Of a DNA stretch of 45,809 nt, positions 3,459 through 36,545 are shown piece after piece. The position numbers and the translations under genes are program-made. Below the pieces are notes generated by a model, which ran no database searches, had not been told where the DNA came from, and was given only the letters and a program-made list of their open reading frames with translations. The first letter of the stretch is position 1. The number at the start of each line of letters is the position of its first letter. The stretch comes from a virus, in the IMG/VR virus record IMGVR_UViG_3300032770_000036, positions 1 to 45,809 of that record; one strand, given 5' to 3'.

Positions 3459-4024
3459 GGCGCTGCCTCTGTCACGGCTTCAGGCTCGGCGATCGGGCTG
3501 GCGTCGATGGTCACGGGCTGGGCGGCGGGCAGCGCTGGCGCAGCGTCAGCCTTGAGCCTGATGACGTAGCCGGGATTGATCGCGACGTTGTTCGTCGTCT
3601 GATTGACGGTGACGCTGACAGATGCGGGCCCGTCGCGCCCTTCGATCGCTTGGATCGCCTTGAGCCTTACCGTCTTGATGGCGGCTGAGCCGTCGCCCTC
3701 TTCGTCTCGAATGGCGATCGCGGCTTTGAGGTTGCGCACGAGCTCGCCGGTGCGCAGCGCGTCGAGGCAGCGGGCGAATTCTTCGCGGAAGGCGCGCTGC
3801 GATAGCTGGGCTTGGCAGCGCGACATGCGAAAGCCCATGTACTTGCTGGCCTGGCGCAGCGTCAGCGGCTCGAAAGCCGGGACAAGCTCGTCGCCGATCA
3901 TTTCGCTGTCGGGCAGGCCGAACGCCATGAGGCGGGCCAGTTCCCGCAAGTCGTCATCGTCCGGCGTGCCTTTCCATGTCGGGCGGCCTTCGGTCTGGCG
4001 CGTCTCGGCAGTCTGTTCGCTCAT
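3455..4024 (-). CDS. Hypothetical protein (189 aa; start at ATG 4024), first gene of the long minus-strand block
   Basis: Track ORF 3455..4114 trimmed to MSEQTAETRQ.... The helical mid-region has only a weak DNA-binding or small-terminase-like flavour. Confidence 0.5.
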   Translation of the reverse strand: MSEQTAETRQTEGRPTWKGTPDDDDLRELARLMAFGLPDSEMIGDELVPAFEPLTLRQASKYMGFRMSRCQAQLSQRAFREEFARCLDALRTGELVRNLKAAIAIRDEEGDGSAAIKTVRLKAIQAIEGRDGPASVSVTVNQTTNNVAINPGYVIRLKADAAPALPAAQPVTIDASPIAEPEAVTEAAP

Positions 4025-4793: not shown

Positions 4794-6356
4794 ATGGCGA
4801 TCCTCAACGACCGCGCGCTGATCACGATCAGCGCCGAGAGCCGCGCCCTCATCCGCGCCGCGATCCGCAGAAGCCCGGGCTGGCGCGCCTACGCCCTTGA
4901 GCGCGACGTCGATCTGTCAGACCTGACAGCGCGCGACGCGATCTTCGATTGCTGCGACGCGCTCGGGATCGATATCGCCGCGACGATCGCCGCCGGCGCG
5001 CAAGACGAGCCGCCCCCGCCGCCGAAAAAGCGCGGCTCGAAAGCTGCGCCTGTCATCGCCCGCCGAACCGAATTCGTCTCGACGTGGAAAAACGGCGAGC
5101 TCCCCCGCGACATTCAGCCCTCGCAAATCATCGCCGTGCTCGGGTTCGATCCTGCCCTGCCCGAGCAAGACGACGATGACGACGTCAAGGTCACGATGAA
5201 ATGGGACTTCACGATCGACGGCGAGCCGGCCGCGATTTGGGATTACAAGGGCGCACGCTGGTCGACGTTCGGCTGCGAGCGCATCGCGCATCTGTTCGCG
5301 TCGCCCCAAGCCCCGCAAGCCCCTCCCGCACCCGCTGGGATCGCCTACCAGCGGCCGCCCCCGCCCACGGCCGCCCCCGCCGCTCCCGTCCCGCAGGAAG
5401 CCGCTACACAGCTTCTCAGCCTCATCGCAGGCCTAGCGCCCAAGGCGACGATGGATGCGGCCGCTGTCACGGCGATTGTCGGCCAATTTGTCGAGGAGCG
5501 CGTCGACCCCGCATTCCTGGAATGGGCGACCACGACAAAGGCGCTCATGGGGCGCGTCTCGGCGATCGAGAACCGCGAAGCGCCCGCCATCGTCGTCAAG
5601 CTGCAGCGAGGCGACACCATCGCTCAAATCGAGGGTCATCATCATCCCAAGTTCGCGACCCTGCTTCGCGCGCTCGGCTCGCGCCAGGCGGACGGCTACG
5701 CCCCGAACGTATGGATCGCCGGGCCCGCGGGGTCTGGCAAGACGCATGCGGCCAAGATGGCGGCGAAGGCGATCGGCGTCGCCTGGCATTACAACGGCGC
5801 CCTCAGCATGCCGCATGAGCTCTTGGGCTTCATCGATGCGGCCGGCAAATATCATCGCACGCCGTTCCGCGAGGCCTACGAACACGGCGGCGTGTACCTG
5901 TTTGACGAAGTCGACGGGAGCGACAACTCGGCGTTGCTCGCGCTCAACGCCGCGCTCGCCAACGGGACAGCGACGTTCCCCGACGGCCAGGTCAAGCGAC
6001 ACGTTGACAGCTATATCATTGGGACTGCGAACACTTGGGGCTTGGGCGCGACTGCGGAGTATGTTGGCAGATCCAAGATCGACGCGGCGTTCCTGTCACG
6101 CTTTCCTGTCAGGCTCGCATGGGACTATGATGAGCCGCTTGAGCGCAATATCTCGGGCAATGAGGCTTTCGCGAAGCGCGTTCAGCGCGCTCGCGCCATG
6201 GCGCGCTCGGCCGGCCTCAAAGTTCTCATCGATCCCCGCGCCTCGATCGCCGGCGCGGCGCTGATCGCCAACGGGGCGAGCGAGGCCGAGGCGGCCGAGC
6301 TCACCTATCTCGCCAATCTCACGGCCGAACAGCGCCGCATGGTCGGGGAGGGCTGA
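4794..6356 (+). CDS. AAA+ ATPase (AAA_5/MoxR/CobS-like) with an N-terminal extension and a Pro-rich linker
   Basis: Walker A is GPAGSGKT and Walker B is VYLFDEVD. An arginine-finger-like GRSKIDAAFLSRF follows, and the linker reads QAPQAPPAPAG...PPPPTAAPAAPVP. The start was moved from TTG 4785 to ATG 4794. Confidence 0.75.
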   Translation: MAILNDRALITISAESRALIRAAIRRSPGWRAYALERDVDLSDLTARDAIFDCCDALGIDIAATIAAGAQDEPPPPPKKRGSKAAPVIARRTEFVSTWKNGELPRDIQPSQIIAVLGFDPALPEQDDDDDVKVTMKWDFTIDGEPAAIWDYKGARWSTFGCERIAHLFASPQAPQAPPAPAGIAYQRPPPPTAAPAAPVPQEAATQLLSLIAGLAPKATMDAAAVTAIVGQFVEERVDPAFLEWATTTKALMGRVSAIENREAPAIVVKLQRGDTIAQIEGHHHPKFATLLRALGSRQADGYAPNVWIAGPAGSGKTHAAKMAAKAIGVAWHYNGALSMPHELLGFIDAAGKYHRTPFREAYEHGGVYLFDEVDGSDNSALLALNAALANGTATFPDGQVKRHVDSYIIGTANTWGLGATAEYVGRSKIDAAFLSRFPVRLAWDYDEPLERNISGNEAFAKRVQRARAMARSAGLKVLIDPRASIAGAALIANGASEAEAAELTYLANLTAEQRRMVGEG

Positions 6357-11157: not shown

Positions 11158-11186
11158 TTGAACAGCACGCAAAAGAGTGTTAATCA
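11158..11186 (+). promoter_or_regulatory. Rightward promoter TTGAAC-17-TAATCA with an imperfect operator in the spacer
   Basis: The -35 is at 11158-11163 and the -10 at 11181-11186. The spacer contains CACGCAAAAGAGTG (11166-11179). Confidence 0.5.
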
Positions 11187-11281
11187 TTTCCGAAAATCGC
11201 ATACGAAATAATGGCTTTCGCGTGCAAGGGTGTCACAAATTCTGCATATACCCGCGTTCGATGTTAACAGGAGGGTGTGTT

Positions 11282-11986
11282 ATGACCGACAACAATGGCG
11301 ATGACGGAACCGGCTTCGTGCCAGCCCTCAGGCCGGCGACTACCCTGGCCCCGGACGACCCCCACGGGTTCGACGCGCGGATTAGGGAGCTTGGTCTCAC
11401 GCCGTACAGCTTTGCGATTGAAATCGGGCAGGATCCGCAAAAGCTGTACCGGCTCATCAAACCGACAAAGAGCGGCGCCTACCCGAGATCGGCCGCCTTT
11501 AAAGAGATCGTCAGAGCCCTCGAAGCCCTGGAAAAGGGGAGACTTGGCGGTCGGCGTCATACCCCTACGCGGTTGCCGGGCGCGAAGTTTCGCCATAGCT
11601 CTGCGAAGAGCGAAACGACGGTTTTCTCGACGATGATCGAGCCGGACGGCTCGGTCAAGGTCGCCGAGCACGCCCACGCTTACGCGCGCGTCCCCGCGTC
11701 GCTGGACGAAGTCTCCGGCGTCATCGGCATTATCGTCCGCGACAACGCCATGACGCCGGTCTACCGGCCCGGCGATACGCTGATCCTCAATCCCGCCGGA
11801 GTGCCGCAGCCCGGGAGCGGCGTCGCGCTTCTGCGCGCCGGCGAGCTCATCCTGCGCGAATATGTCGACGAGACGCCGGACAAGTGGATCGTCCGCCGCT
11901 ACGGCCGCGAGCCCGCGGAAGAAACGATCCTGAAACACGCCGGTCAGCGCGCCTACGTCGTCTCAGCGCTCTACCCGGGGCGATAA
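11282..11986 (+). CDS. CI-like repressor: N-terminal HTH plus an S24 (LexA-like) C-terminal domain with a substituted catalytic dyad
   Basis: AGGAGG lies 8 nt upstream of ATG 11282. VRDNAMTPVYRPGD aligns with lambda CI EVEGNSM...GD, and ELILREY aligns with FTFKKL. Confidence 0.7.
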   Translation: MTDNNGDDGTGFVPALRPATTLAPDDPHGFDARIRELGLTPYSFAIEIGQDPQKLYRLIKPTKSGAYPRSAAFKEIVRALEALEKGRLGGRRHTPTRLPGAKFRHSSAKSETTVFSTMIEPDGSVKVAEHAHAYARVPASLDEVSGVIGIIVRDNAMTPVYRPGDTLILNPAGVPQPGSGVALLRAGELILREYVDETPDKWIVRRYGREPAEETILKHAGQRAYVVSALYPGR

Positions 11987-12018
11987 ATGCGCGTCACAGG
12001 GTCAACACGCATTTACGA

Positions 12019-12047
12019 TTGACGTCTATCGCAAAAGCGTGTATTCC
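12019..12047 (+). promoter_or_regulatory. Promoter TTGACG-17-TATTCC with operator ATCGCAAAAGCGTG (12028-12041) in the spacer
   Basis: Direct reading. The operator-in-spacer layout is the same as at the immunity switch. Confidence 0.5.
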
Positions 12048-12080
12048 TTGCTATCGGAACACGAAGCAAGGCGCACGCAA

Positions 12081-12368
12081 ATGCGAGAAGGCGAAGCGGA
12101 GCGGTATTTTCGCGAATTCATCCTCCCCGCTTGCCGGAAGATAGGTGACACGGGCGAGCTCATCGCGGTCCTGCAGGGGCAGGTTGAGGCGTGGGAGCTC
12201 GTCAGGGATCGCGAGCCCGACGCGCCGCGCAAGCTTGCCTATCTTCAGATGACGCTGCTGCTGATCGAGGCCCGGACGCGCAACAGCGTCGAGGCCTTGC
12301 AGCGCGCGATCGACGCCGCGGTCGAGGCCTGCGAGATCGATAAGCTGCGCGCCGAGGGCGTGCTGTGA
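12081..12368 (+). CDS. Hypothetical protein (95 aa; start moved to ATG 12081)
   Basis: Track ORF 12039..12368. The GTG at 12039 lies inside the operator. Confidence 0.5.
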   Translation: MREGEAERYFREFILPACRKIGDTGELIAVLQGQVEAWELVRDREPDAPRKLAYLQMTLLLIEARTRNSVEALQRAIDAAVEACEIDKLRAEGVL

Positions 12369-13261
12369 TCGTGCTCACGCCCCCGGTGGGCGCTCCCGGC
12401 TTCTATGAGATGACCGCGGCGGAATATCACGCCGACCCGTGTCCGATACCGTCGCTGTCCGCCAGCATCGCGAAAAAGCTCTTGCGGCAGACGCCCAAGC
12501 ACGCCTGGGCCGCCCATCCGCGCCTCTGCGCGCAGATCCCGGACGATCCGACGCCCGCCATGCTGTTCGGCTCCGTCGTGCATAAGCTCGTGCTCGGCGC
12601 CGGCGCGCGGATCAAGGTCATCGACGCCGAGGACTATCGCTCGAAAGACGCGCAGCGCGCGCGCGACCTGGCGCTCGCCTCCGGCCGCCTGCCTATCCTG
12701 GCGAAGAAATTCGACGAGGCCGATCTTATCGCCGAGCATGTCAGAACGCGTGTGCAGCGCGCCGCGCCGCGCATGTTCACTGGCAGGCCCGAGCTCGTCG
12801 CCATCTGGCAGGAAGGCGATGTGTGGTGTCGCGCGATGATGGACAGCTACCAGCTCGCCGGCGGCCTCGCCTTGATTGACGACCTGAAGACCAGCGGCCA
12901 GGATATCTCGCCGCTCGGCGTCGGGAAGACGATCGCGAATATGGGCTATGAGATCCAGGCCGCCTTCTACTCGCTGGCGAGCCTGCGCCTCGCGCCAGAC
13001 GCCATGCCGACGTTCCGCTTCGCGTTCGCCGAAACCGAGCCGCCCTACGAGGCGAGCATCGTCGAGCTGACAGGCGCGGCTTTCGAGATCGGCCGCCGCC
13101 AGGTGAGCGCCGCGATCGAGCTGTGGCGGCGTTGCCTGAAGTCCAACGAATGGCCCGGCTATCCCGACACGCCCATACGCGCCGACCTGCCGCCCTGGCA
13201 CGTCGGCTCGTGGGAACAGCGCGAGCAGGACGACCCGCTGCTTGAGGGGGTGAGTTACTGA
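12365..13261 (+). CDS. PD-(D/E)XK exonuclease (RecE/YqaJ-type recombination nuclease)
   Basis: The motifs are ...EYHADP..., LIDDLKTSG and YEIQAAFY (D...DxK...QxxxY pattern). It overlaps the upstream gene by 4 nt. Confidence 0.7.
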   Translation: MIVLTPPVGAPGFYEMTAAEYHADPCPIPSLSASIAKKLLRQTPKHAWAAHPRLCAQIPDDPTPAMLFGSVVHKLVLGAGARIKVIDAEDYRSKDAQRARDLALASGRLPILAKKFDEADLIAEHVRTRVQRAAPRMFTGRPELVAIWQEGDVWCRAMMDSYQLAGGLALIDDLKTSGQDISPLGVGKTIANMGYEIQAAFYSLASLRLAPDAMPTFRFAFAETEPPYEASIVELTGAAFEIGRRQVSAAIELWRRCLKSNEWPGYPDTPIRADLPPWHVGSWEQREQDDPLLEGVSY

Positions 13262-13318
13262 GTTTGAGGAGGGGCTGGCCTGGGTGAGGTCAGGTCAGGT
13301 ATGGTCGGGTGTGGCGCG

Positions 13319-13354
13319 CCTCATCAAATAAGCTTCACGGATTATTTGATGAGG
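13319..13354. repeat. Hairpin 1: CCTCATCAAATAA / TTATTTGATGAGG, 13-bp perfect stem with a 10-nt loop
   Basis: Direct reading. Confidence 0.8.
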
Positions 13355-13403
13355 TTCGGCAGGTGGGGGTCCGGTAGGCCGAGGTAAGGTCGGGCATGGC
13401 GAG

Positions 13404-13443
13404 CTTCATCAAATAATCGTGCTGCGGCGAGTATTTGATGAGG
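13404..13443. repeat. Hairpin 2: CTTCATCAAATA / TATTTGATGAGG, 12-bp stem (one T-G pair) with a 16-nt loop
   Basis: Direct reading. The stem sequence is the same as in hairpin 1 but the loop differs. Confidence 0.8.
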
Positions 13444-13576
13444 CCCGCCTCGGTGCGGCATGGCTTGGCGAGGTCGGGTACGGTGTGGTTCGGTGAGCAA
13501 TGGTCAGGCGCGGCACGGGCCGCCTCGGTCTGGCGAGGTATGGCAACTAATTTGGTCTTAGCAAGGGGATGAGAGA

Positions 13577-14191
13577 ATGACAAAGCATGTGAAGAGCGAA
13601 CAAGTCACCAATGGGGCGAGGGATGCGGTTGAAGCTGGTATCCCATATGTGGTTTCGGTCACGATCGAGGGGAGCGCGGACATCTTGTTTCATCGCTGGA
13701 ACAACGAAGCCGTCGCCGCCAAGGCGGCCGCGAAAAAGGGCTCCGCGGAAAAGAAGACGGACAATGTCGAGACCTTCGTCTATCGAGACGAGAGGGGTCA
13801 AATCGCATTGCCTGGCGAGTATCTTCGGCAATCGATCATCAACGCGGCGAAGTTCAAGCAAGACCCGCGCTCTCCACGCAAAAGTGCGATGGACCTCTAC
13901 AAGGCCGGGGTTATCGCGCTTACGCCACTTGCGAGTTTCGGCAAAGAGAAGTGGGATTACGAAGACCGCCGAAGGGTGACAGTCCAGCGCGCCGGCGTCA
14001 CCCGCGTTCGACCGGCCATGACCAAGGGCTGGAAACTGACGTTCGATTTTCTCGTCAATCTTCCTGAGTACATAGACGCGAACGATCTGCGAGAAACGAT
14101 CGAGAGCGCCGGCAAGCTTGTAGGTCTAGGCGACTTCAGGCCGACCTACGGGCGGTTCGGGATCGTGTCGTTTGCGGCACGACTGCCTTAG
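13577..14191 (+). CDS. Unknown protein (204 aa) between the exonuclease and the ATPase
   Basis: Track ORF with AAGGGGA 8 nt upstream of the ATG and high GC3. I recognise no family. Confidence 0.65.
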   Translation: MTKHVKSEQVTNGARDAVEAGIPYVVSVTIEGSADILFHRWNNEAVAAKAAAKKGSAEKKTDNVETFVYRDERGQIALPGEYLRQSIINAAKFKQDPRSPRKSAMDLYKAGVIALTPLASFGKEKWDYEDRRRVTVQRAGVTRVRPAMTKGWKLTFDFLVNLPEYIDANDLRETIESAGKLVGLGDFRPTYGRFGIVSFAARLP

Positions 14192-14209
14192 TTTCCTCTG
14201 CCTCGCCGC

Positions 14210-14289
14210 GGTAGGGTTCGCAGCGGTTCGCCGCGGTATGGTCCGGTATGGCCGGGTCGCGTGAGGTAAGGTGTGGTCCGCTGTGGTTA
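14210..14289 (+). repeat. Second 5-nt-phased GGTNN tract (16 pentamers, 12 starting with GG)
   Basis: Direct reading gives ggtag ggttc gcagc ggttc gccgc ggtat ggtcc ggtat ggccg ggtcg cgtga ggtaa ggtgt ggtcc gctgt ggtta. Confidence 0.8.
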
Positions 14290-14309
14290 TATTATTTGGA
14301 GCTAAGGAA

Positions 14310-15263
14310 GTGACAACATTCCGCCCCGCCAACGAGATCCGCGATCGCATCGGCGTGTTCGTCGCGCTGACAGGCACAGCGAACTCCGGCAAGACCTACA
14401 GTGCGCTGGCGCTCGCCCGCGGGATCGCGGGGCCGGGCGGGAAGATCGCCGTCGTCGACACCGAGGGCGGTCGCACGCTGCACCTGAAAGAGCAGTTCAA
14501 ATTCGAGGCCCTCGTCATCGGGCCGCCGTTCAGGCCCGATCGGTTCAGTGAGCTCGCGCAGACCGCGGAGCAGGAAGGCTACGCGTGTTTGCTGATTGAC
14601 AGCTTCAGTCAGGAATGGGTCGGGATCGGCGGCGTGCTGTCATGGCACGAAGAAGAGCTGTCACGCATGGCGGGCGACGACTACGCCAAGCGCGAGCGCG
14701 TGAAGATGGCGGCCTGGATCAGGCCCAAGAGCGCGCACAAAGCGATGGTCAACAGCTTCCTGCAGCGCAGGATCCCGATCATCTTCGCGATCCGCGGCGA
14801 AGAGAGCGTCAAGCCTGCGGAAGCGGGCGGGAAGCCGCAAAAGATCTACAAGAGCCTCACGAACAAGGATTTCCCTTTCGAGATGACGGTCGCCTTCCGG
14901 CTCGACCCCGCGCGCAAGGGCTACATCGATCTGTCAGACCCCGCGACCTGGAAGATGGAAGGCGCGCATCAGGCCATCTTCAAGGACGGCGATCGGCTGG
15001 CGCCGGAGCACGGCCAGCGCCTCGGCGCGTGGGCGGCGAACTTGTCGCTGAGCGACGCCGCGCCGGCGTCGCCTATGGGCCGCGATCTCCTGACCGAAGG
15101 CTTCGAGGCCGCCTCGCGCGGCTCTGACACGCTGCGATCGTTCTGGGGCAGGCTGAGCGCCTCAGAGAAGCACGCCGCCGGCGGCGCGAACAAGCTGGCC
15201 GAGTGGAAGGACATCGCGTTCAAGGCCGACGCCGAGATCGCGTCGGAAGAGGGAGCGAGCTGA
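14310..15263 (+). CDS. RecA-fold P-loop ATPase (Sak4/AAA_24-like recombination ATPase)
   Basis: Walker A is LTGTANSGKT and Walker B-like is ACLLIDSF. The GTG at 14310 is preceded by AAGGAA; the track start at 14271 lies inside the repeat tract. Confidence 0.6.
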   Translation: MTTFRPANEIRDRIGVFVALTGTANSGKTYSALALARGIAGPGGKIAVVDTEGGRTLHLKEQFKFEALVIGPPFRPDRFSELAQTAEQEGYACLLIDSFSQEWVGIGGVLSWHEEELSRMAGDDYAKRERVKMAAWIRPKSAHKAMVNSFLQRRIPIIFAIRGEESVKPAEAGGKPQKIYKSLTNKDFPFEMTVAFRLDPARKGYIDLSDPATWKMEGAHQAIFKDGDRLAPEHGQRLGAWAANLSLSDAAPASPMGRDLLTEGFEAASRGSDTLRSFWGRLSASEKHAAGGANKLAEWKDIAFKADAEIASEEGAS

Positions 15264-15264
15264 C

Positions 15265-15612
15265 ATGGGCGAGGCGAAGATCAAGGCGGCGCAGCGCGCC
15301 GCGGCGGGCGGCCCTATGCCGACGCCGGAGGAGTTCAAGGCGATGGAAGCGCTGTCCGCGCGCTTCGCCGAGGCGCTGTGGCGCGAGGGAATGGCGCTCG
15401 CCGGCCCGAGCCCGCACTTCATGGCGCGGATGCTGGCGTTCGTCACCGCCGGCCGCGTGATCGCGGAGGCGGGGAAACAGCTTCACGAGCGGCCGGAGGC
15501 GACGCAAGAGGCCGCGGCGCTCGGCATGCGCCAGGCTGTCATCATCGCGCAGCGCCAGGCCTTCGTCGAAGAAGGGCGGCGGCTGGCGGCCGCGGGGGAG
15601 CGGCGGCAGTGA
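15265..15612 (+). CDS. Hypothetical protein (115 aa)
   Basis: Track ORF starting 2 nt after the ATPase stop. Confidence 0.55.
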   Translation: MGEAKIKAAQRAAAGGPMPTPEEFKAMEALSARFAEALWREGMALAGPSPHFMARMLAFVTAGRVIAEAGKQLHERPEATQEAAALGMRQAVIIAQRQAFVEEGRRLAAAGERRQ

Positions 15613-15773
15613 TCGAGGTATTTCAGGCGATCGTTTGGGGCTTGGTCATACTTTGCCTCGCGATTTGCGGCCTGGCGTCCATTTTAATCCTTACGATCCT
15701 GCTCTGCAGGATCCTTTCCGAGGTTGTCGCAGATGCTTGGCATGATTTGCGCGACTGGCGCGGGGGACGCTGA
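15609..15773 (+). CDS. 54-aa membrane peptide
   Basis: The GTG start overlaps the upstream TGA. The peptide reads VIEVFQAIVWGLVILCLAICGLASILILTILLCRIL.... Confidence 0.4.
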   Translation: MIEVFQAIVWGLVILCLAICGLASILILTILLCRILSEVVADAWHDLRDWRGGR

Positions 15774-15774
15774 C

Positions 15775-15921
15775 ATGCACAGAGTTTTCGAATACATGCT
15801 GTGCTTTGCTCTTTTCATGTGCGCCAACGCCCTCGCGATACACGCTGGTGCGGCGCAAGGGATTGAGCTTTTCTTGGCGATGGTCCTGGCCGGCTGCGTC
15901 GGCGTTTTCCTGCCAGATTAG
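15775..15921 (+). CDS. 48-aa membrane peptide
   Basis: Reads MHRVFEYMLCFALFMCANALAIHAGAAQGIELFLAMVLAGCVGVFLPD. The ATG lies 2 nt after the upstream stop. Confidence 0.4.
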   Translation: MHRVFEYMLCFALFMCANALAIHAGAAQGIELFLAMVLAGCVGVFLPD

Positions 15922-15929
15922 GACAAGGA

Positions 15930-16199
15930 ATGCCCCGCCGCCCGCTGCCTCTCCTCATCGACAGCTTGCCTCTCTACGCGACGAAGGGGCAGATTATGGG
16001 CGCGATCACCGCCAGCACGCACGGGCAGTCGAACTTGCGGAGCCTGTTCTCCGCCGCCGGCTTCCCGAAGCCGAACGCCTTCATGGACGGCTACTATGTG
16101 CCGGCGGTCATCGCCTTCATCGAGAAGTTTGAAGCCGATCGTTCTGGTTCTTTGTTGGGGAGTAAGTCATGGGGCGAAACATCGAGGCGCCCGGCCTAA
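15930..16199 (+). CDS. xis: Excisionase/AlpA-like DNA-binding protein (89 aa)
   Basis: It lies immediately upstream of the integrase and overlaps it. AAGFPKPNAFMDGYYVPAVIAFIEK resembles the AlpA/Xis motif FP.P....W....V..W. Confidence 0.4.
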   Translation: MPRRPLPLLIDSLPLYATKGQIMGAITASTHGQSNLRSLFSAAGFPKPNAFMDGYYVPAVIAFIEKFEADRSGSLLGSKSWGETSRRPA

Positions 16200-17362
16200 G
16201 GTGGCGCTCGCGCGCGAGCGGCGCGCGGATCCCGGTCTGGATCGCGAGCAACGAAGCGGCCATGCGTGGCTACCCCGTCAAGACCGTGAACCTGACGGGC
16301 CTGACGGACCGCGAGATCGTCGCGCGCTGCCACGCGCTGCAGGCCGAAATGAAGGCCTGGGTCGGCGGCCGACCCCAGGATGCCTACGACGGGACGCTGG
16401 GCTCGCTGATCAGGATCTACCAGACGCACGAGGAAAGCGGCTACCAGCGGCTCAAGCCGTCGAGCCGCATTCCCTACGATGTCTATCTCCGTCGCATCCA
16501 CGAGGTCTATGGGCGGGCCAAAATCGAGCGCCTGACAGGCTTGGACCTCCGGGCGTGGCACAAGGACATGCGCGCGCCCGACGCCGCCGGCGGCCGCGAG
16601 AAGCTCGGCGCGGCGGAAATGGGGATCTCGGTCCTCAAGGCGGTCTTTTCCTTCGGGCTCGTCGCGGGCATTCGAGAGTGCGAGCATATCGTCGCCGTTG
16701 CGCGCGAGCTGCGCCTGCCAGGCCCAAAGGCGCGCGACGTCGCGCCCACGGCGGATGAGGTCGAACTGGCGCGCGCGGCCGCGCACCGCCTCGGCCATCC
16801 CCGCGCCGCTCTCGCCTACGCGCTGCAATTCGAGACGATGGCCCGGCAATGGGATATCATCGGCCAATGGGTTCCGCTCGACGACCCGAGGCCGTCGGCG
16901 GTCATTCGCGGGCGCTTGAAGTGGATCGGGCCGACCTGGGCGGCGATCGACGAACGCGGCGTTCTCAAGATCAAGCCGACCAAGACGGAGGGCTCGACCG
17001 GCGCGACGATCCACGTCGATCTGTCAGGCTGTCAGATGGTCATGGCGGAGCTGGCGCAGATCCCCGGAGCCGAACGCGTCGGGCCGCTGGTCACGTTCGA
17101 GGGCGCGCCGTATCCCAAGAACGCCTTCGATCGGCTTTGGCGGCGCGTGCGCAAGGGCGCCGGGCTCCCCGATGGAATGTGGAACCGCGACTTGCGCGCC
17201 GGCGGCGTGACAGAAGCGCAGATCGCCGGCGCCAGCGCGGAGGATCGCGCGAAGCTGGCGGGCCACAGCAAGCGCGTCAACGAGCAGGTTTATGCGCGCG
17301 ACCGCCTCGCCGCGAGCGGGCGTGTGGTCGAGCTGCGGGCGAAACTGAGGAGTGAGAAATGA
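16169..17362 (+). CDS. int: Tyrosine integrase
   Basis: The protein is 397 aa. The C-terminal catalytic region reads ...RDLRAGGVTEA...LAGHSKRVNEQVYARD (R...HxxR-like...H...Y pattern). Confidence 0.8.
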   Translation: MGRNIEAPGLRWRSRASGARIPVWIASNEAAMRGYPVKTVNLTGLTDREIVARCHALQAEMKAWVGGRPQDAYDGTLGSLIRIYQTHEESGYQRLKPSSRIPYDVYLRRIHEVYGRAKIERLTGLDLRAWHKDMRAPDAAGGREKLGAAEMGISVLKAVFSFGLVAGIRECEHIVAVARELRLPGPKARDVAPTADEVELARAAAHRLGHPRAALAYALQFETMARQWDIIGQWVPLDDPRPSAVIRGRLKWIGPTWAAIDERGVLKIKPTKTEGSTGATIHVDLSGCQMVMAELAQIPGAERVGPLVTFEGAPYPKNAFDRLWRRVRKGAGLPDGMWNRDLRAGGVTEAQIAGASAEDRAKLAGHSKRVNEQVYARDRLAASGRVVELRAKLRSEK

Positions 17363-34836: not shown

Positions 34837-36545
34837 CTTTGCGCCCCCGACATCGCCCCGCGGATCTGCGTGATCGGCGGCGGCGCCGGCGCGGGACCGA
34901 CGGGCGCGGGCGGCGCGGGCTGGCCGGCGTTGGCCGCCGCCGCAGGCGCGCCGGGCGTCTGGCCGCCGAGAACCTGCGCCAGCAGCGGCGCGACCTTGGC
35001 GACGTCGTCGGGCTTGCGCATGACGATGACGTCGTCCGCGCCGCCCTTGCGGATCAGGTTCTCGATCGTCGCGCCGCCGTCGACCTTGAGCTTCCACTCC
35101 TCGGGGAAGGCCTGGCCGCCGATCTCGATCACGCGCGCCGCCTGCGCGACCTTCTGCTGGTCGGCCGCCTTGCGCGCGGGGTTCTGCGGCTGCAGCGAAA
35201 CCTCTTCGCCGTTGTGCTTGACCTTGCTGACAGCGCCGCGCTGGACGAGCAGATATTCAAAGCGCTCGAAGACGCCGACGCACCATTCGCCCCAGAACGC
35301 TTGCCCCGGCGTGCCGATGCGCCGCTGCGCCATCGTCATCTCGTCGAGCCATTGCGTCGCGCTCGGCGGCGTCTTGCCCATCTGGTCAGGGAAATCGAGG
35401 AAGTGCAGCCGCTTGATGCGCTGCTCGACGTCGTTTCTGTCATAGATCGCGACGTTCGGCGACGTGCTTTCGTAGATGTTCTTGATCGCGTCCTCGGAAC
35501 CGACGCGCACGGGATAGGCGTAGCCGGCCTCGATCCCCTCCTCGAAATTGACGACGCTGTCATCGGGAATGGCGATCGGCGGCCGCAGGCTGATGTCGCA
35601 GTTGAGGATCTTGGCCGCCGCCAGCTCGTCGAGATGGCGATAGTCCGGCAGGCACTTGATCCCCGGCCCGGCGCCGAACGCCCATTCCTTCATCGCGCCG
35701 AAACGCGCGACGACGAGCGGAATAGAGCCCGCGCCTTTGATTTTGGCGTCCTTGACGACGTGATTGTCGACGACGACCAAGTAATTCCAGACGATGTCAG
35801 AGTTGACGCGCCAATCACGCCAGAAGGACTTGCGGACCTCGACAGACTTCTTGCGGGCTTTCTTGTCCTTCATCTGCTTGACGATTTCGGCGGGCCACTC
35901 GGTTATGTCTGGCAATACTTCCGGCAGATGCTTGATCTGCGTGTGCTGGACATGCGACCGGAAGTCGACATGGCCGGTTGGCCCGGTGCCGATTTCGAGC
36001 TCGTGCAGCGGGACGGCCTGGCACTCAATACCCGCGTAGGCGCGGGGATCGTCGATCCACATGGCGACGGTTCCCGCCGCCAGGTCGGGCATGAAGCCGA
36101 CGCCGCTTTCCGCATAGAAGTTGCTCGCGCTGATCGCCTCGAAAATCTTGGCGTCTTCCTCTTTGATCTTGTCGGCGATGACGTCCTTGACCGCCGGAGG
36201 CACGTTGAGGCCGGGCGCGCGCGCGACCCACGGCGTGACCTCGGGCGTGAACGTGGTCATGATGACGGTCGCGAAGTCTTCCGCCATCTCGATCGCGTAG
36301 GACGTGTTGCTTTCGCCGGCGTCGAGCGGCTTGACGCTGTTCTTGGTGCGCGAGGAAAGCTGGCGCGCGCGGTGCGGCGCGGCGAAGAAATAGAGCTCGC
36401 GAAGGTCGCGCTCCCACTCGGCCTTGTGGACGCGGGCGTCTTCGAGCAGCTCGGCCTCGCGCTCCTTTAGCGTCAAGCGCCTGTCAGCGGTTTCCTTGTC
36501 GAGCGTCTCGACGATCGGCTCGTCGGCGGGGAGGTTGTCGGCCAT
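34833..36545 (-). CDS. Portal protein (T7 gp8-type head-to-tail connector, 570 aa)
   Basis: The call rests on size, position after the terminase, the conserved-looking segment ...GKTPPSATQWLDEMTMAQRRIG..., and a Pro/Ala-rich C-terminal tail. Confidence 0.75.
   Translation of the reverse strand: MADNLPADEPIVETLDKETADRRLTLKEREAELLEDARVHKAEWERDLRELYFFAAPHRARQLSSRTKNSVKPLDAGESNTSYAIEMAEDFATVIMTTFTPEVTPWVARAPGLNVPPAVKDVIADKIKEEDAKIFEAISASNFYAESGVGFMPDLAAGTVAMWIDDPRAYAGIECQAVPLHELEIGTGPTGHVDFRSHVQHTQIKHLPEVLPDITEWPAEIVKQMKDKKARKKSVEVRKSFWRDWRVNSDIVWNYLVVVDNHVVKDAKIKGAGSIPLVVARFGAMKEWAFGAGPGIKCLPDYRHLDELAAAKILNCDISLRPPIAIPDDSVVNFEEGIEAGYAYPVRVGSEDAIKNIYESTSPNVAIYDRNDVEQRIKRLHFLDFPDQMGKTPPSATQWLDEMTMAQRRIGTPGQAFWGEWCVGVFERFEYLLVQRGAVSKVKHNGEEVSLQPQNPARKAADQQKVAQAARVIEIGGQAFPEEWKLKVDGGATIENLIRKGGADDVIVMRKPDDVAKVAPLLAQVLGGQTPGAPAAAANAGQPAPPAPVGPAPAPPPITQIRGAMSGAQR

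Follow-up and report, generated by a model that had tools for sequence, protein, structure and literature searches.

The 45,809 nucleotides (nt) of IMG/VR virus record IMGVR_UViG_3300032770_000036 (positions 1 to 45,809, the whole stretch that was analysed, hereafter the window) carry tracts of GG-led pentamers on both sides of a gene for a 204-amino-acid (aa) protein. The tracts probably make up a guide RNA (vrRNA) array, belonging to a phage system of the VIPR kind (Viral Interference Programmable Repeat), and the 204-aa gene would be its vipr gene. Most of the array lies in the gap between a DUF3799/PDDEXK exonuclease gene and the vipr candidate, confirmed at the 315 nt given by an earlier reading of the letters alone (the sequence-only reading), and a last tract separates the vipr candidate from the gene of an AAA_24/25-like, Sak4-like ATPase. 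Every gene from about 11177 to 17362 is on the + strand.

Table 1. Features of the candidate VIPR locus, in window coordinates.
Feature	Position	Strand	Description
Exonuclease gene	12365-13261	+	DUF3799/PDDEXK; upstream neighbour
Exonuclease-to-vipr gap	13262-13576	+	GG-led pentamers
Tract 1 (putative vrRNA unit 1)	13268-13317	+	10 pentamers: GGAGG GGCTG GCCTG GGTGA GGTCA GGTCA GGTAT GGTCG GGTGT GGCGC; predicted 1-nt-skip target code nGGnTGnTGnGAnCAnCAnATnCGnGTnGC
Hairpin 1	13318-13354	+	Arms CCTCATCAAATAA / TTATTTGATGAGG, 10-12-nt loop; candidate constant 3' tail or processing element
Tract 2 (putative vrRNA unit 2)	13353-13402	+	10 pentamers: GGTTC GGCAG GTGGG GGTCC GGTAG GCCGA GGTAA GGTCG GGCAT GGCGA; pentamer 1 overlaps the 3' arm of hairpin 1; predicted code nTCnAGnGGnCCnAGnGAnAAnCGnATnGA
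Hairpin 2	13403-13449	+	CTTCATCAAATAA ... TATTTGATGAGG; stem lengthened by GGCG/CGCC pairing
Tract 3a	13442-13516	+	15 pentamers, without hairpin tail; starts GGCCC GCCTC, motif again 75 nt on
Tract 3b	13517-13546	+	6 pentamers: GGGCC GCCTC GGTCT GGCGA GGTAT GGCAA; 30 nt separate it from the vipr start codon
Shine-Dalgarno-like site	13563-13569	+	AAGGGGA, 5' of vipr
Candidate vipr gene	13577-14191	+	204 aa; single-RRM RAMP, predicted pentamer-repeat binder
Tract 4	14205-14289	+	17 pentamers, clean core 14235-14279; 3' of the vipr stop codon and 5' of the ATPase gene
ATPase gene	from 14310	+	317 aa; AAA_24/25-like, Sak4-like; downstream neighbour

Period-5 signal and pentamer composition

Three tracts had been described in the gap by the sequence-only reading, with seven GG-led pentamers in 13283-13317, seven in 13368-13402 and 19 in one register in 13452-13546, 17 of the latter GG-led. 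The recount agreed for the first (7/7) and the third (17/19, single register); the second does consist of seven pentamers, but six are GG-led, the exception being GCCGA, and the earlier count was a small overstatement. Pooled over the three tracts, 30/33 pentamers are GG-led and 29/33 begin with GGY (Y, pyrimidine).

The Fourier amplitude of GG positions at period 5 over the gap was 33.3 (z about 8), compared with 6.35 +/- 3.27 and a maximum of 20.8 in 2000 dinucleotide-preserving shuffles, which upholds the periodicity that the sequence-only reading had claimed. All other periods from 3 to 11 stayed below 10. When the whole window was scanned in sliding 60-nt segments, the top three period-5 peaks (10.4, 11.6 and 9.8) fell at the vipr locus and exceeded the highest per-shuffle maximum (9.96; mean 7.9 +/- 0.6), except for one that was only about equal to it. 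A CC peak at 5317-5435 (8.8) and a GG peak at 34858-34947 (8.0) were rejected as lying inside the range of per-shuffle maxima, and neither contains a tract of at least six net GG pentamers.

The array is larger than the three tracts first noted. Tracts 1 and 2 reach further upstream to ten repeats each, the last seven of which are those already counted; tract 3 has 21 repeats at its full extent (13442-13546), split into 15 and 6, and a fourth tract of 17 repeats lies 3' of the vipr gene. Across 58 pentamers of the window, position 1 is G in 57 (98%), position 2 is G in 48 (83%) and position 3 is a pyrimidine in 53 (91%; binomial p 2e-11). The last two positions (NN) are close to unconstrained, with entropies of 1.96 and 1.98 bits for positions 4 and 5 and use of all 16 dinucleotides.

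It was considered whether GG runs three bases apart could form stacked two-tetrad G-quadruplexes, in the RNA or in a displaced DNA strand, and act as a structural regulator, an idea also raised by the sequence-only reading. (GGNNN)n formally fits a two-tetrad motif. A quadruplex leaves the pyrimidine bias at position 3 unexplained, as it does the strict pairing of the tracts with one protein family over a GC content of 34-68% (see below), and in the cryo-electron microscopy structure of a homologous complex each G is held singly, in syn, by side chains (bioRxiv 10.64898/2026.04.26.720927). We regard this explanation as unsupported and exceedingly improbable.

Repeat units, hairpins and annotation tools

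A repeat search found an 85-nt unit of tract plus hairpin twice, with 13265-13331 recurring at 13350-13416 at 72% identity. Within tract 3 it found a 75-nt periodicity (direct repeat 13442-13469 / 13517-13544), which divides the tract into a unit of 15 repeats and a remnant of six. Tract 3b may be a short or remnant unit, or else belong to one long vrRNA as its 3' part. A CRISPR array of identical 23-47 bp repeats and spacers was rejected, as only these degenerate 85-nt and 75-nt units and the hairpin arms were found. Tandem Repeats Finder, run on 13000-14500, returned three short period-10 fragments and missed the period-5 arrays. No credible Rfam match came from the window, and vrRNAs have no family in Rfam 15, so such arrays would escape standard annotation pipelines.

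The regions of hairpin 1 (13313-13362; -23.7 kcal/mol, z -5.35) and hairpin 2 (13398-13451; -31.5 kcal/mol, z -6.12) fold far more stably than shuffled sequences, and the arms of each form an inverted repeat. Tracts 3 and 4 fold like shuffles (z +0.45 and -0.14). The two hairpins share an AT-rich 13-bp stem (CTCATCAAATAA / TTATTTGATGAG) within a 66%-GC genome, and their inner loop helices differ in sequence while being paired in each. They could be RNase III-type processing sites, the stem reaching about 19 bp with flanking pairs. Intrinsic terminators were ruled out, there being no T-run after the stem. A scan for sigma-70 promoters and intrinsic terminators found none on the + strand, a consensus scan being uninformative for a GC-rich host.

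The 204-aa protein

VIPR was described in 2026 in two bioRxiv preprints from the Doudna and Brohawn laboratories as a CRISPR-like system of RNA-guided DNA silencing (bioRxiv 10.64898/2026.04.26.720920, 10.64898/2026.04.26.720927). Its Vipr protein is a small (about 20 kDa) ancestral RAMP with a single RRM, a glycine-rich loop and a thumb, and its vrRNA consists of 9-16 YNNGG repeats with conserved GGY and hypervariable NN, followed by a constant structured tail, the criterion for detection being at least 4 repeats (bioRxiv 10.64898/2026.04.26.720920,.720927). The tracts of the window count 10, 10, 21 (15 + 6) and 17 pentamers on the vipr strand, and in style they are alike to phiSUSP1 (SUSP1) vrRNA1, verified by small RNA sequencing (locus L024, 2171-2230; GGTAA GGTGT GGTTC ...). 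The statement of the sequence-only reading that no phage element of this architecture had been described is superseded by the VIPR descriptions of April-June 2026.

No Pfam family, the TRAP domain included, matched the 204-aa protein, which matches PHROG 4652 (no known function). A phmmer search of PDB sequences gave one match, 36pp_D 'SUSP1 Vipr protein' (E 3.3e-6), and with a profile of the 42-sequence family the match to 36pp improved to E 2.1e-10, nearly the full length being aligned (positions 28-196 of the profile, residues 6-187 of the chain). By BLASTP the protein is 27% identical to the phiSUSP1 Vipr (E 2e-11). The AF2 (AlphaFold2) model of the protein (pLDDT 84.8, pTM 0.77) was compared with the PDB using Foldseek, and every top match was a Csm3/Cas7 subunit from a type III, type VII or gRAMP complex (E 4e-7 to 4e-5, TM about 0.5).

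Six SUSP1 residues, H17, E71, K82, R138, D177 and R179, are invariant in the MAFFT alignment. In SUSP1 Vipr, H17 and D177 read G1, R138 and W178 read G2, and R179 and E71 read Y3, while K82 is the non-target-strand clamp (bioRxiv 10.64898/2026.04.26.720927). The equivalents in the window protein are H39 (H17), E81 (E71), R145 (R138), D186 (D177) and R188 (R179), with the aromatic F187 in place of W178. Judged by sequence homology and the modelled fold, the 204-aa protein is a Vipr protein with a Cas7-like RAMP fold.

Attenuation of the TRAP type was rejected on four grounds: the absence of a Pfam match, the RAMP fold, the GGY motif and the absence of a terminator-like site on the + strand. The homologue in phage DSL-LC04 (L025 2468-3085, OR003939.1, WJZ48083.1) is 61.6% identical to the window protein, and its GenBank label 'helix-turn-helix transcriptional regulator' is probably a misannotation.

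Conservation across related loci

Relatives of the 204-aa protein (55-68% identity) were collected from IMG/VR at 22 loci, and 21 of these have strong period-5 GG tracts directly 5' or 3' of the homologue. All loci fetched later have tracts as well, so that the recurrence in related phages that the sequence-only reading proposed to look for is observed: phage DSL-LC04 shows the same homologue and tract layout, and tracts lie beside the homologue in four bacterial genomes of four phyla (Steroidobacteraceae, Blastocatellia, Alicyclobacillus, Raineya) and beside the gene in three closer relatives (72-73% identity). The tracts are on the gene strand in all loci but one (L022), which has an extra divergent minus-strand tract upstream. 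Contig GC ranges from 41% to 68% in the IMG/VR loci and from 34% to 68% over all of the approximately 35 loci, which come from several phyla.

Among 929 pentamers of the IMG/VR loci, G occupies the first position in 98% and the second in 91%, both of which the tract finder had partly selected for, and the unselected third position holds Y in 90%. Positions 4 and 5 are roughly uniform. The same phage was found in four further public assemblies, the arrays of which are 100% identical to those of the window and carry no information on variation between near-identical phages. Samples with this phage are JGI 3300032954, SRR8881745, ERZ27256474 and ERZ27256576.

The surroundings of the gene are less constant. 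An exonuclease gene lies beside vipr in 3/30 non-redundant loci, all-against-all clustering of the ORFs (open reading frames) within +/-2.5 kb in these 30 loci gave no family in more than three loci and, the exonuclease apart, none shared by unrelated loci, and tblastn of the window neighbours against the 22 loci found no conserved accessory gene. Since the protein and tracts recur and the neighbours do not, the conserved unit is one protein plus its GGY-NN tracts.

These data also bear on a role at the DNA level, in which the array would be a loading or nucleation site for the exonuclease or the Sak4-like ATPase, or an origin. Its position between the two genes fits such a role, and a PDDEXK gene is adjacent in two further loci (L017 and L052). 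The same neighbours are missing from 27/30 non-redundant loci with tracts, and the tracts are strand-specific relative to vipr everywhere but in L022. Enzymes of these kinds are not known to have a 5-nt-footprint specificity. A recombination or replication element has in our estimation next to no probability, and the proposals of the sequence-only reading that the exonuclease and ATPase are partners of the array, or that the array is an origin, found no support, the two genes not being conserved beside homologues.

As to vipr and exonuclease adjacency itself, a PDDEXK exonuclease gene adjoins vipr in L052 (2434-3603) and L017 (1788-2654), followed in L052 by an AAA_24 ATPase gene. The pairing could reflect a recurrent insertion site in a recombination module or a shared early-region location.

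A further explanation places the function in cis, with Vipr polymerising on its own 5' untranslated region and controlling vipr translation or transcript stability in the manner of TRAP. GGYNN is the motif that Vipr is expected to bind, the tail-less tract 3 abuts the vipr ribosome-binding site, and in about 10/30 related loci a tract ends 20-50 nt 5' of vipr. Tracts occur solely downstream of the gene in many loci (L004, L006, L009, L011, L019, L020, L049 and L052), a leader needs neither near-maximal NN entropy nor all 16 dinucleotides, and the upstream vrRNA1 of SUSP1 is a functional guide by experiment (bioRxiv 10.64898/2026.04.26.720920,.720927). An autoregulatory leader is considered very unlikely as the explanation of the array, although autoregulation could occur as a secondary effect beside the guide role. 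The description of the tracts as a mere leader of the 204-aa gene was not retained, the array being read as guide RNA with a further tract 3' of the gene.

Punctuation of the arrays varies widely among the relatives. L042 has 51 uninterrupted repeats (1306-1560), and in L044 (2409-2949) all tracts share one AGGGCGTAAGCCCT... hairpin as their tail. T-rich GGATACTTTGTTTATTT separators lie between the tracts of L004 (1230-1900), and L015 (2290-2990) has two distinct families of structured separators. None of the separators and tails of these four loci matched an Rfam family. In L044, a Raineya genome, two tRNA genes lie just 3' of vipr (3611-3670 and 3777-3847); they were the sole matches when 15 related loci were searched with Rfam at gathering score, and no hammerhead was found.

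The 204-aa family is large, with 6,905 protein clusters matching at E <= 1e-3. Identity within the clade is 55-75% over phages and bacteria of at least 4 phyla. The Vipr proteins of the clade are 55-68% identical across Gammaproteobacteria, Acidobacteriota, Bacillota and Bacteroidota and over contigs with 34-68% GC; such conservation is unusually strong for a phage accessory protein and suggests frequent horizontal transfer of a compact vipr plus vrRNA cassette.

Assignment and proposed mechanism

Because of the homology to SUSP1 Vipr, the conserved GGY readers, the GGY-NN tracts and the recurrent pairing of protein and tracts, the region was assigned to VIPR, and we put the probability that it is the vrRNA guide array of a phage VIPR system, with the 204-aa gene as vipr, at about 90%. 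The sequence-only reading had suggested, among other roles, a phased array for a filament-forming protein with a triplet-plus-spacer logic and the adjacent 204-aa protein as a binding candidate, and this matches the physical logic of VIPR.

In the published systems, Vipr protomers assemble on the vrRNA, one per repeat, into a right-handed helical filament with GGY sequestered and NN free (bioRxiv 10.64898/2026.04.26.720927). The NN bases pair with double-stranded DNA (dsDNA), one target base being skipped per repeat, in an R-loop triplex; the output is transcriptional repression independent of a protospacer-adjacent motif, and satellites, prophages and other VIPR loci are targeted in nature (bioRxiv 10.64898/2026.04.26.720920,.720927).

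By homology to the work on SUSP1 and P. fulva, an early + strand transcript (exonuclease, array, vipr, tract 4, ATPase) would be processed into vrRNAs, with the two hairpins probably acting as constant 3' tails or processing sites. Each pentamer would be bound by one Vipr protomer, and the resulting right-handed helical filament would bury GGY, with H39 and D186 reading G1, R145 and F187 reading G2, and R188 and E81 reading Y3. The exposed NN would pair with dsDNA under an xNN rule, with one skipped base per repeat. Targets of 30 bp are predicted for units 1 and 2; those of tract 3 would span approximately 45-63 bp, and those of tract 4 33-51 bp. The bound complex would be an R-loop triplex that blocks transcription, presumably on competing phages, prophages or satellites in a shared host. 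As no nuclease, helicase or other partner gene is consistently linked to the clade, silencing is expected and not cutting.

Units 1 and 2, at 85 nt each, appear to resemble the published tract-plus-tail design, with the hairpin as tail or processing site. The tail-less tracts 3 and 4 would correspond to the long uninterrupted arrays of relatives (51 repeats in L042) and to the published 'staggered' arrays. An invariable 3' tail has been described for type II, and tail-less or staggered arrays for other types; an accessory vap gene is typical and not universal, with six vap genes for seven types (bioRxiv 10.64898/2026.04.26.720920,.720927). A vap-less type is thus compatible with the VIPR description.

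An additional and more speculative idea for this vap-less clade is that the tail-less tract abutting the ribosome-binding site would be a feedback sensor, filament growth on the 5' untranslated region of vipr matching Vipr dosage to guide load, and/or that the recurrent position beside PDDEXK exonuclease and Sak4-like ATPase genes (window, L017, L052) would mean that the R-loop triplex directs recombination at matching sites as well as silencing transcription; this seems to us very unlikely.

Several points weigh against the assignment. A repeated structured element follows only two of the four tracts (1 and 2), and the vrRNA ends and the number of mature RNAs used for the window phage are guesses. 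No accessory vap gene was found, either among the neighbours of the 30 loci or by comparison of SUSP1 vap1 with the window. The 1-nt skip rule stems from work on type II systems, whose protein is 27% identical to that of the window (bioRxiv 10.64898/2026.04.26.720920,.720927), and both VIPR sources are preprints. Finally, 13 exact-seed scans of IMG/VR, JGI metagenomes and GTDB gave chance-like matches and no convincing natural target that would support a role in conflict between phages (see next section).

Target searches

A target was taken as a site matching at least 80% of the NN bases (bioRxiv 10.64898/2026.04.26.720920,.720927). Within the window no self-target was found at this threshold, the best matches being 14/20 (70%) for the 10-repeat guides and no more than 59% for the long ones, and none of the 9-repeat sub-guides reached 17/18. 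The absence of a self-target is expected of guides aimed at others, and the genomes of VIPR systems are likewise without self-targets (bioRxiv 10.64898/2026.04.26.720920,.720927).

The external scans used exact patterns of 16-20 specified bases per guide against IMG/VR, JGI metagenomes and GTDB genomes, and each match was extended over the remaining repeats. As exact seeds only were used, with assumed guide boundaries and an assumed skip rule, their negative result is weak. The sole near-complete match, of tract 4 to L031/L040, had 23/24 NN bases over repeats 4-15 and was rejected, with a chance p of about 0.3 given 10 seed matches. The L031 site (5323-5358 of Ga0078894_10011935) lies on a GC-70% contig inside an 888-aa ORF, and the skipped base falls on codon position 2, not on the wobble position. 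A match of tract 1 to L023 (18/18 bases) was also rejected; it lies on a 44%-GC contig and does not extend. Cross-testing of 387 nine-repeat sub-guides, drawn from the window together with the fetched loci, gave no match of at least 17/18 except that of L023.

Genomic context

The window belongs to a tailed phage, with genes for a large terminase, a major head protein, an adaptor, tail proteins and an endolysin, and S24-peptidase repressor-like and integrase-like genes are also present. The phage is probably temperate. Most VIPR loci are proviral or viral (bioRxiv 10.64898/2026.04.26.720920,.720927), a distribution into which a tailed phage with repressor-like and integrase-like genes fits. 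With regard to the downstream ATPase, the program-made ORF list starts it at a GTG at 14271, within tract 4. The gene calls of identical contigs use the start given in Table 1, which follows an AAGGAA ribosome-binding site and leaves tract 4 wholly intergenic.

Significance

The locus adds a new example to the known VIPR kind and is no new class of element. Its differences from SUSP1 in architecture are minor (hairpins as tails, one tail-less tract directly against the vipr ribosome-binding site, no vap gene). VIPR has been known only since 2026, and the locus brings to it an uncharacterised, widely spread Vipr clade that apparently manages with no accessory gene. Array punctuation in the clade differs, by hairpins, T-rich separators or no separator at all. 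A simple period-5 GG test can locate vrRNA arrays in raw sequence. Four or five guides are predicted at the window locus, and their targets, if found, would name the competitors of the phage.

Comparison with known systems

The closest described system is the phiSUSP1 type II VIPR (PDB 36pp). Both proteins have approximately 200 aa, one RRM, a G-loop with the motif GD(W/F)RPxxGRF and a thumb, and the GGY-reading residues are conserved. In both, GGY-NN tracts of about 10-15 repeats are intergenic, on both sides of vipr and on its strand, and the system is phage-encoded without a self-target; a repeated structured element follows the tracts, in the window tracts 1 and 2. In contrast to phiSUSP1, the window protein is only 27% identical, the pseudoknot tail is replaced by a simple 13-bp AT-rich hairpin, and such a hairpin follows neither the longest tract (15 + 6 repeats) nor the one downstream of vipr. 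The window, from a GC-rich (66%) host, also differs in having no homologue of SUSP1 vap1 and no conserved accessory gene, the gene 3' of the DSL-LC04 vipr having been included in the comparison. Hammerhead-interspersed vrRNA arrays are known from VIPR types I and V (bioRxiv 10.64898/2026.04.26.720920,.720927). No hammerhead ribozyme was found in 12800-14800 of the window at E <= 10.

With the Cas7 filaments of Class 1 CRISPR systems (Csm3/Cmr4/Cas7 on CRISPR RNA), the candidate Vipr shares the RAMP fold (Foldseek E about 1e-6), and the two kinds of system have in common one protomer per RNA increment, a thumb that flips bases periodically and RNA-guided target recognition. The VIPR increment is 5 nt with 2 pairing, as opposed to 6 nt with 5 pairing in Class 1 CRISPR, and its guide information is non-contiguous. 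Unlike a Class 1 locus, the window has no repeat-spacer array, no cas1/cas2 and no other Cas subunits, and VIPR is phage-borne and not adaptive.

TRAP, with its (G/U)AG-NN leader, resembles VIPR in that a multimer reads an RNA triplet at a period of about 5 nt and leaves 2-3 spacer bases unread. The Vipr fold (RAMP) is unrelated to that of TRAP, the motif is GGY and not GAG/UAG, and the assembly is an open helical filament, whereas TRAP forms a closed 11-mer ring. In VIPR, moreover, the spacers carry information, and the output is DNA targeting in trans instead of attenuation in cis.

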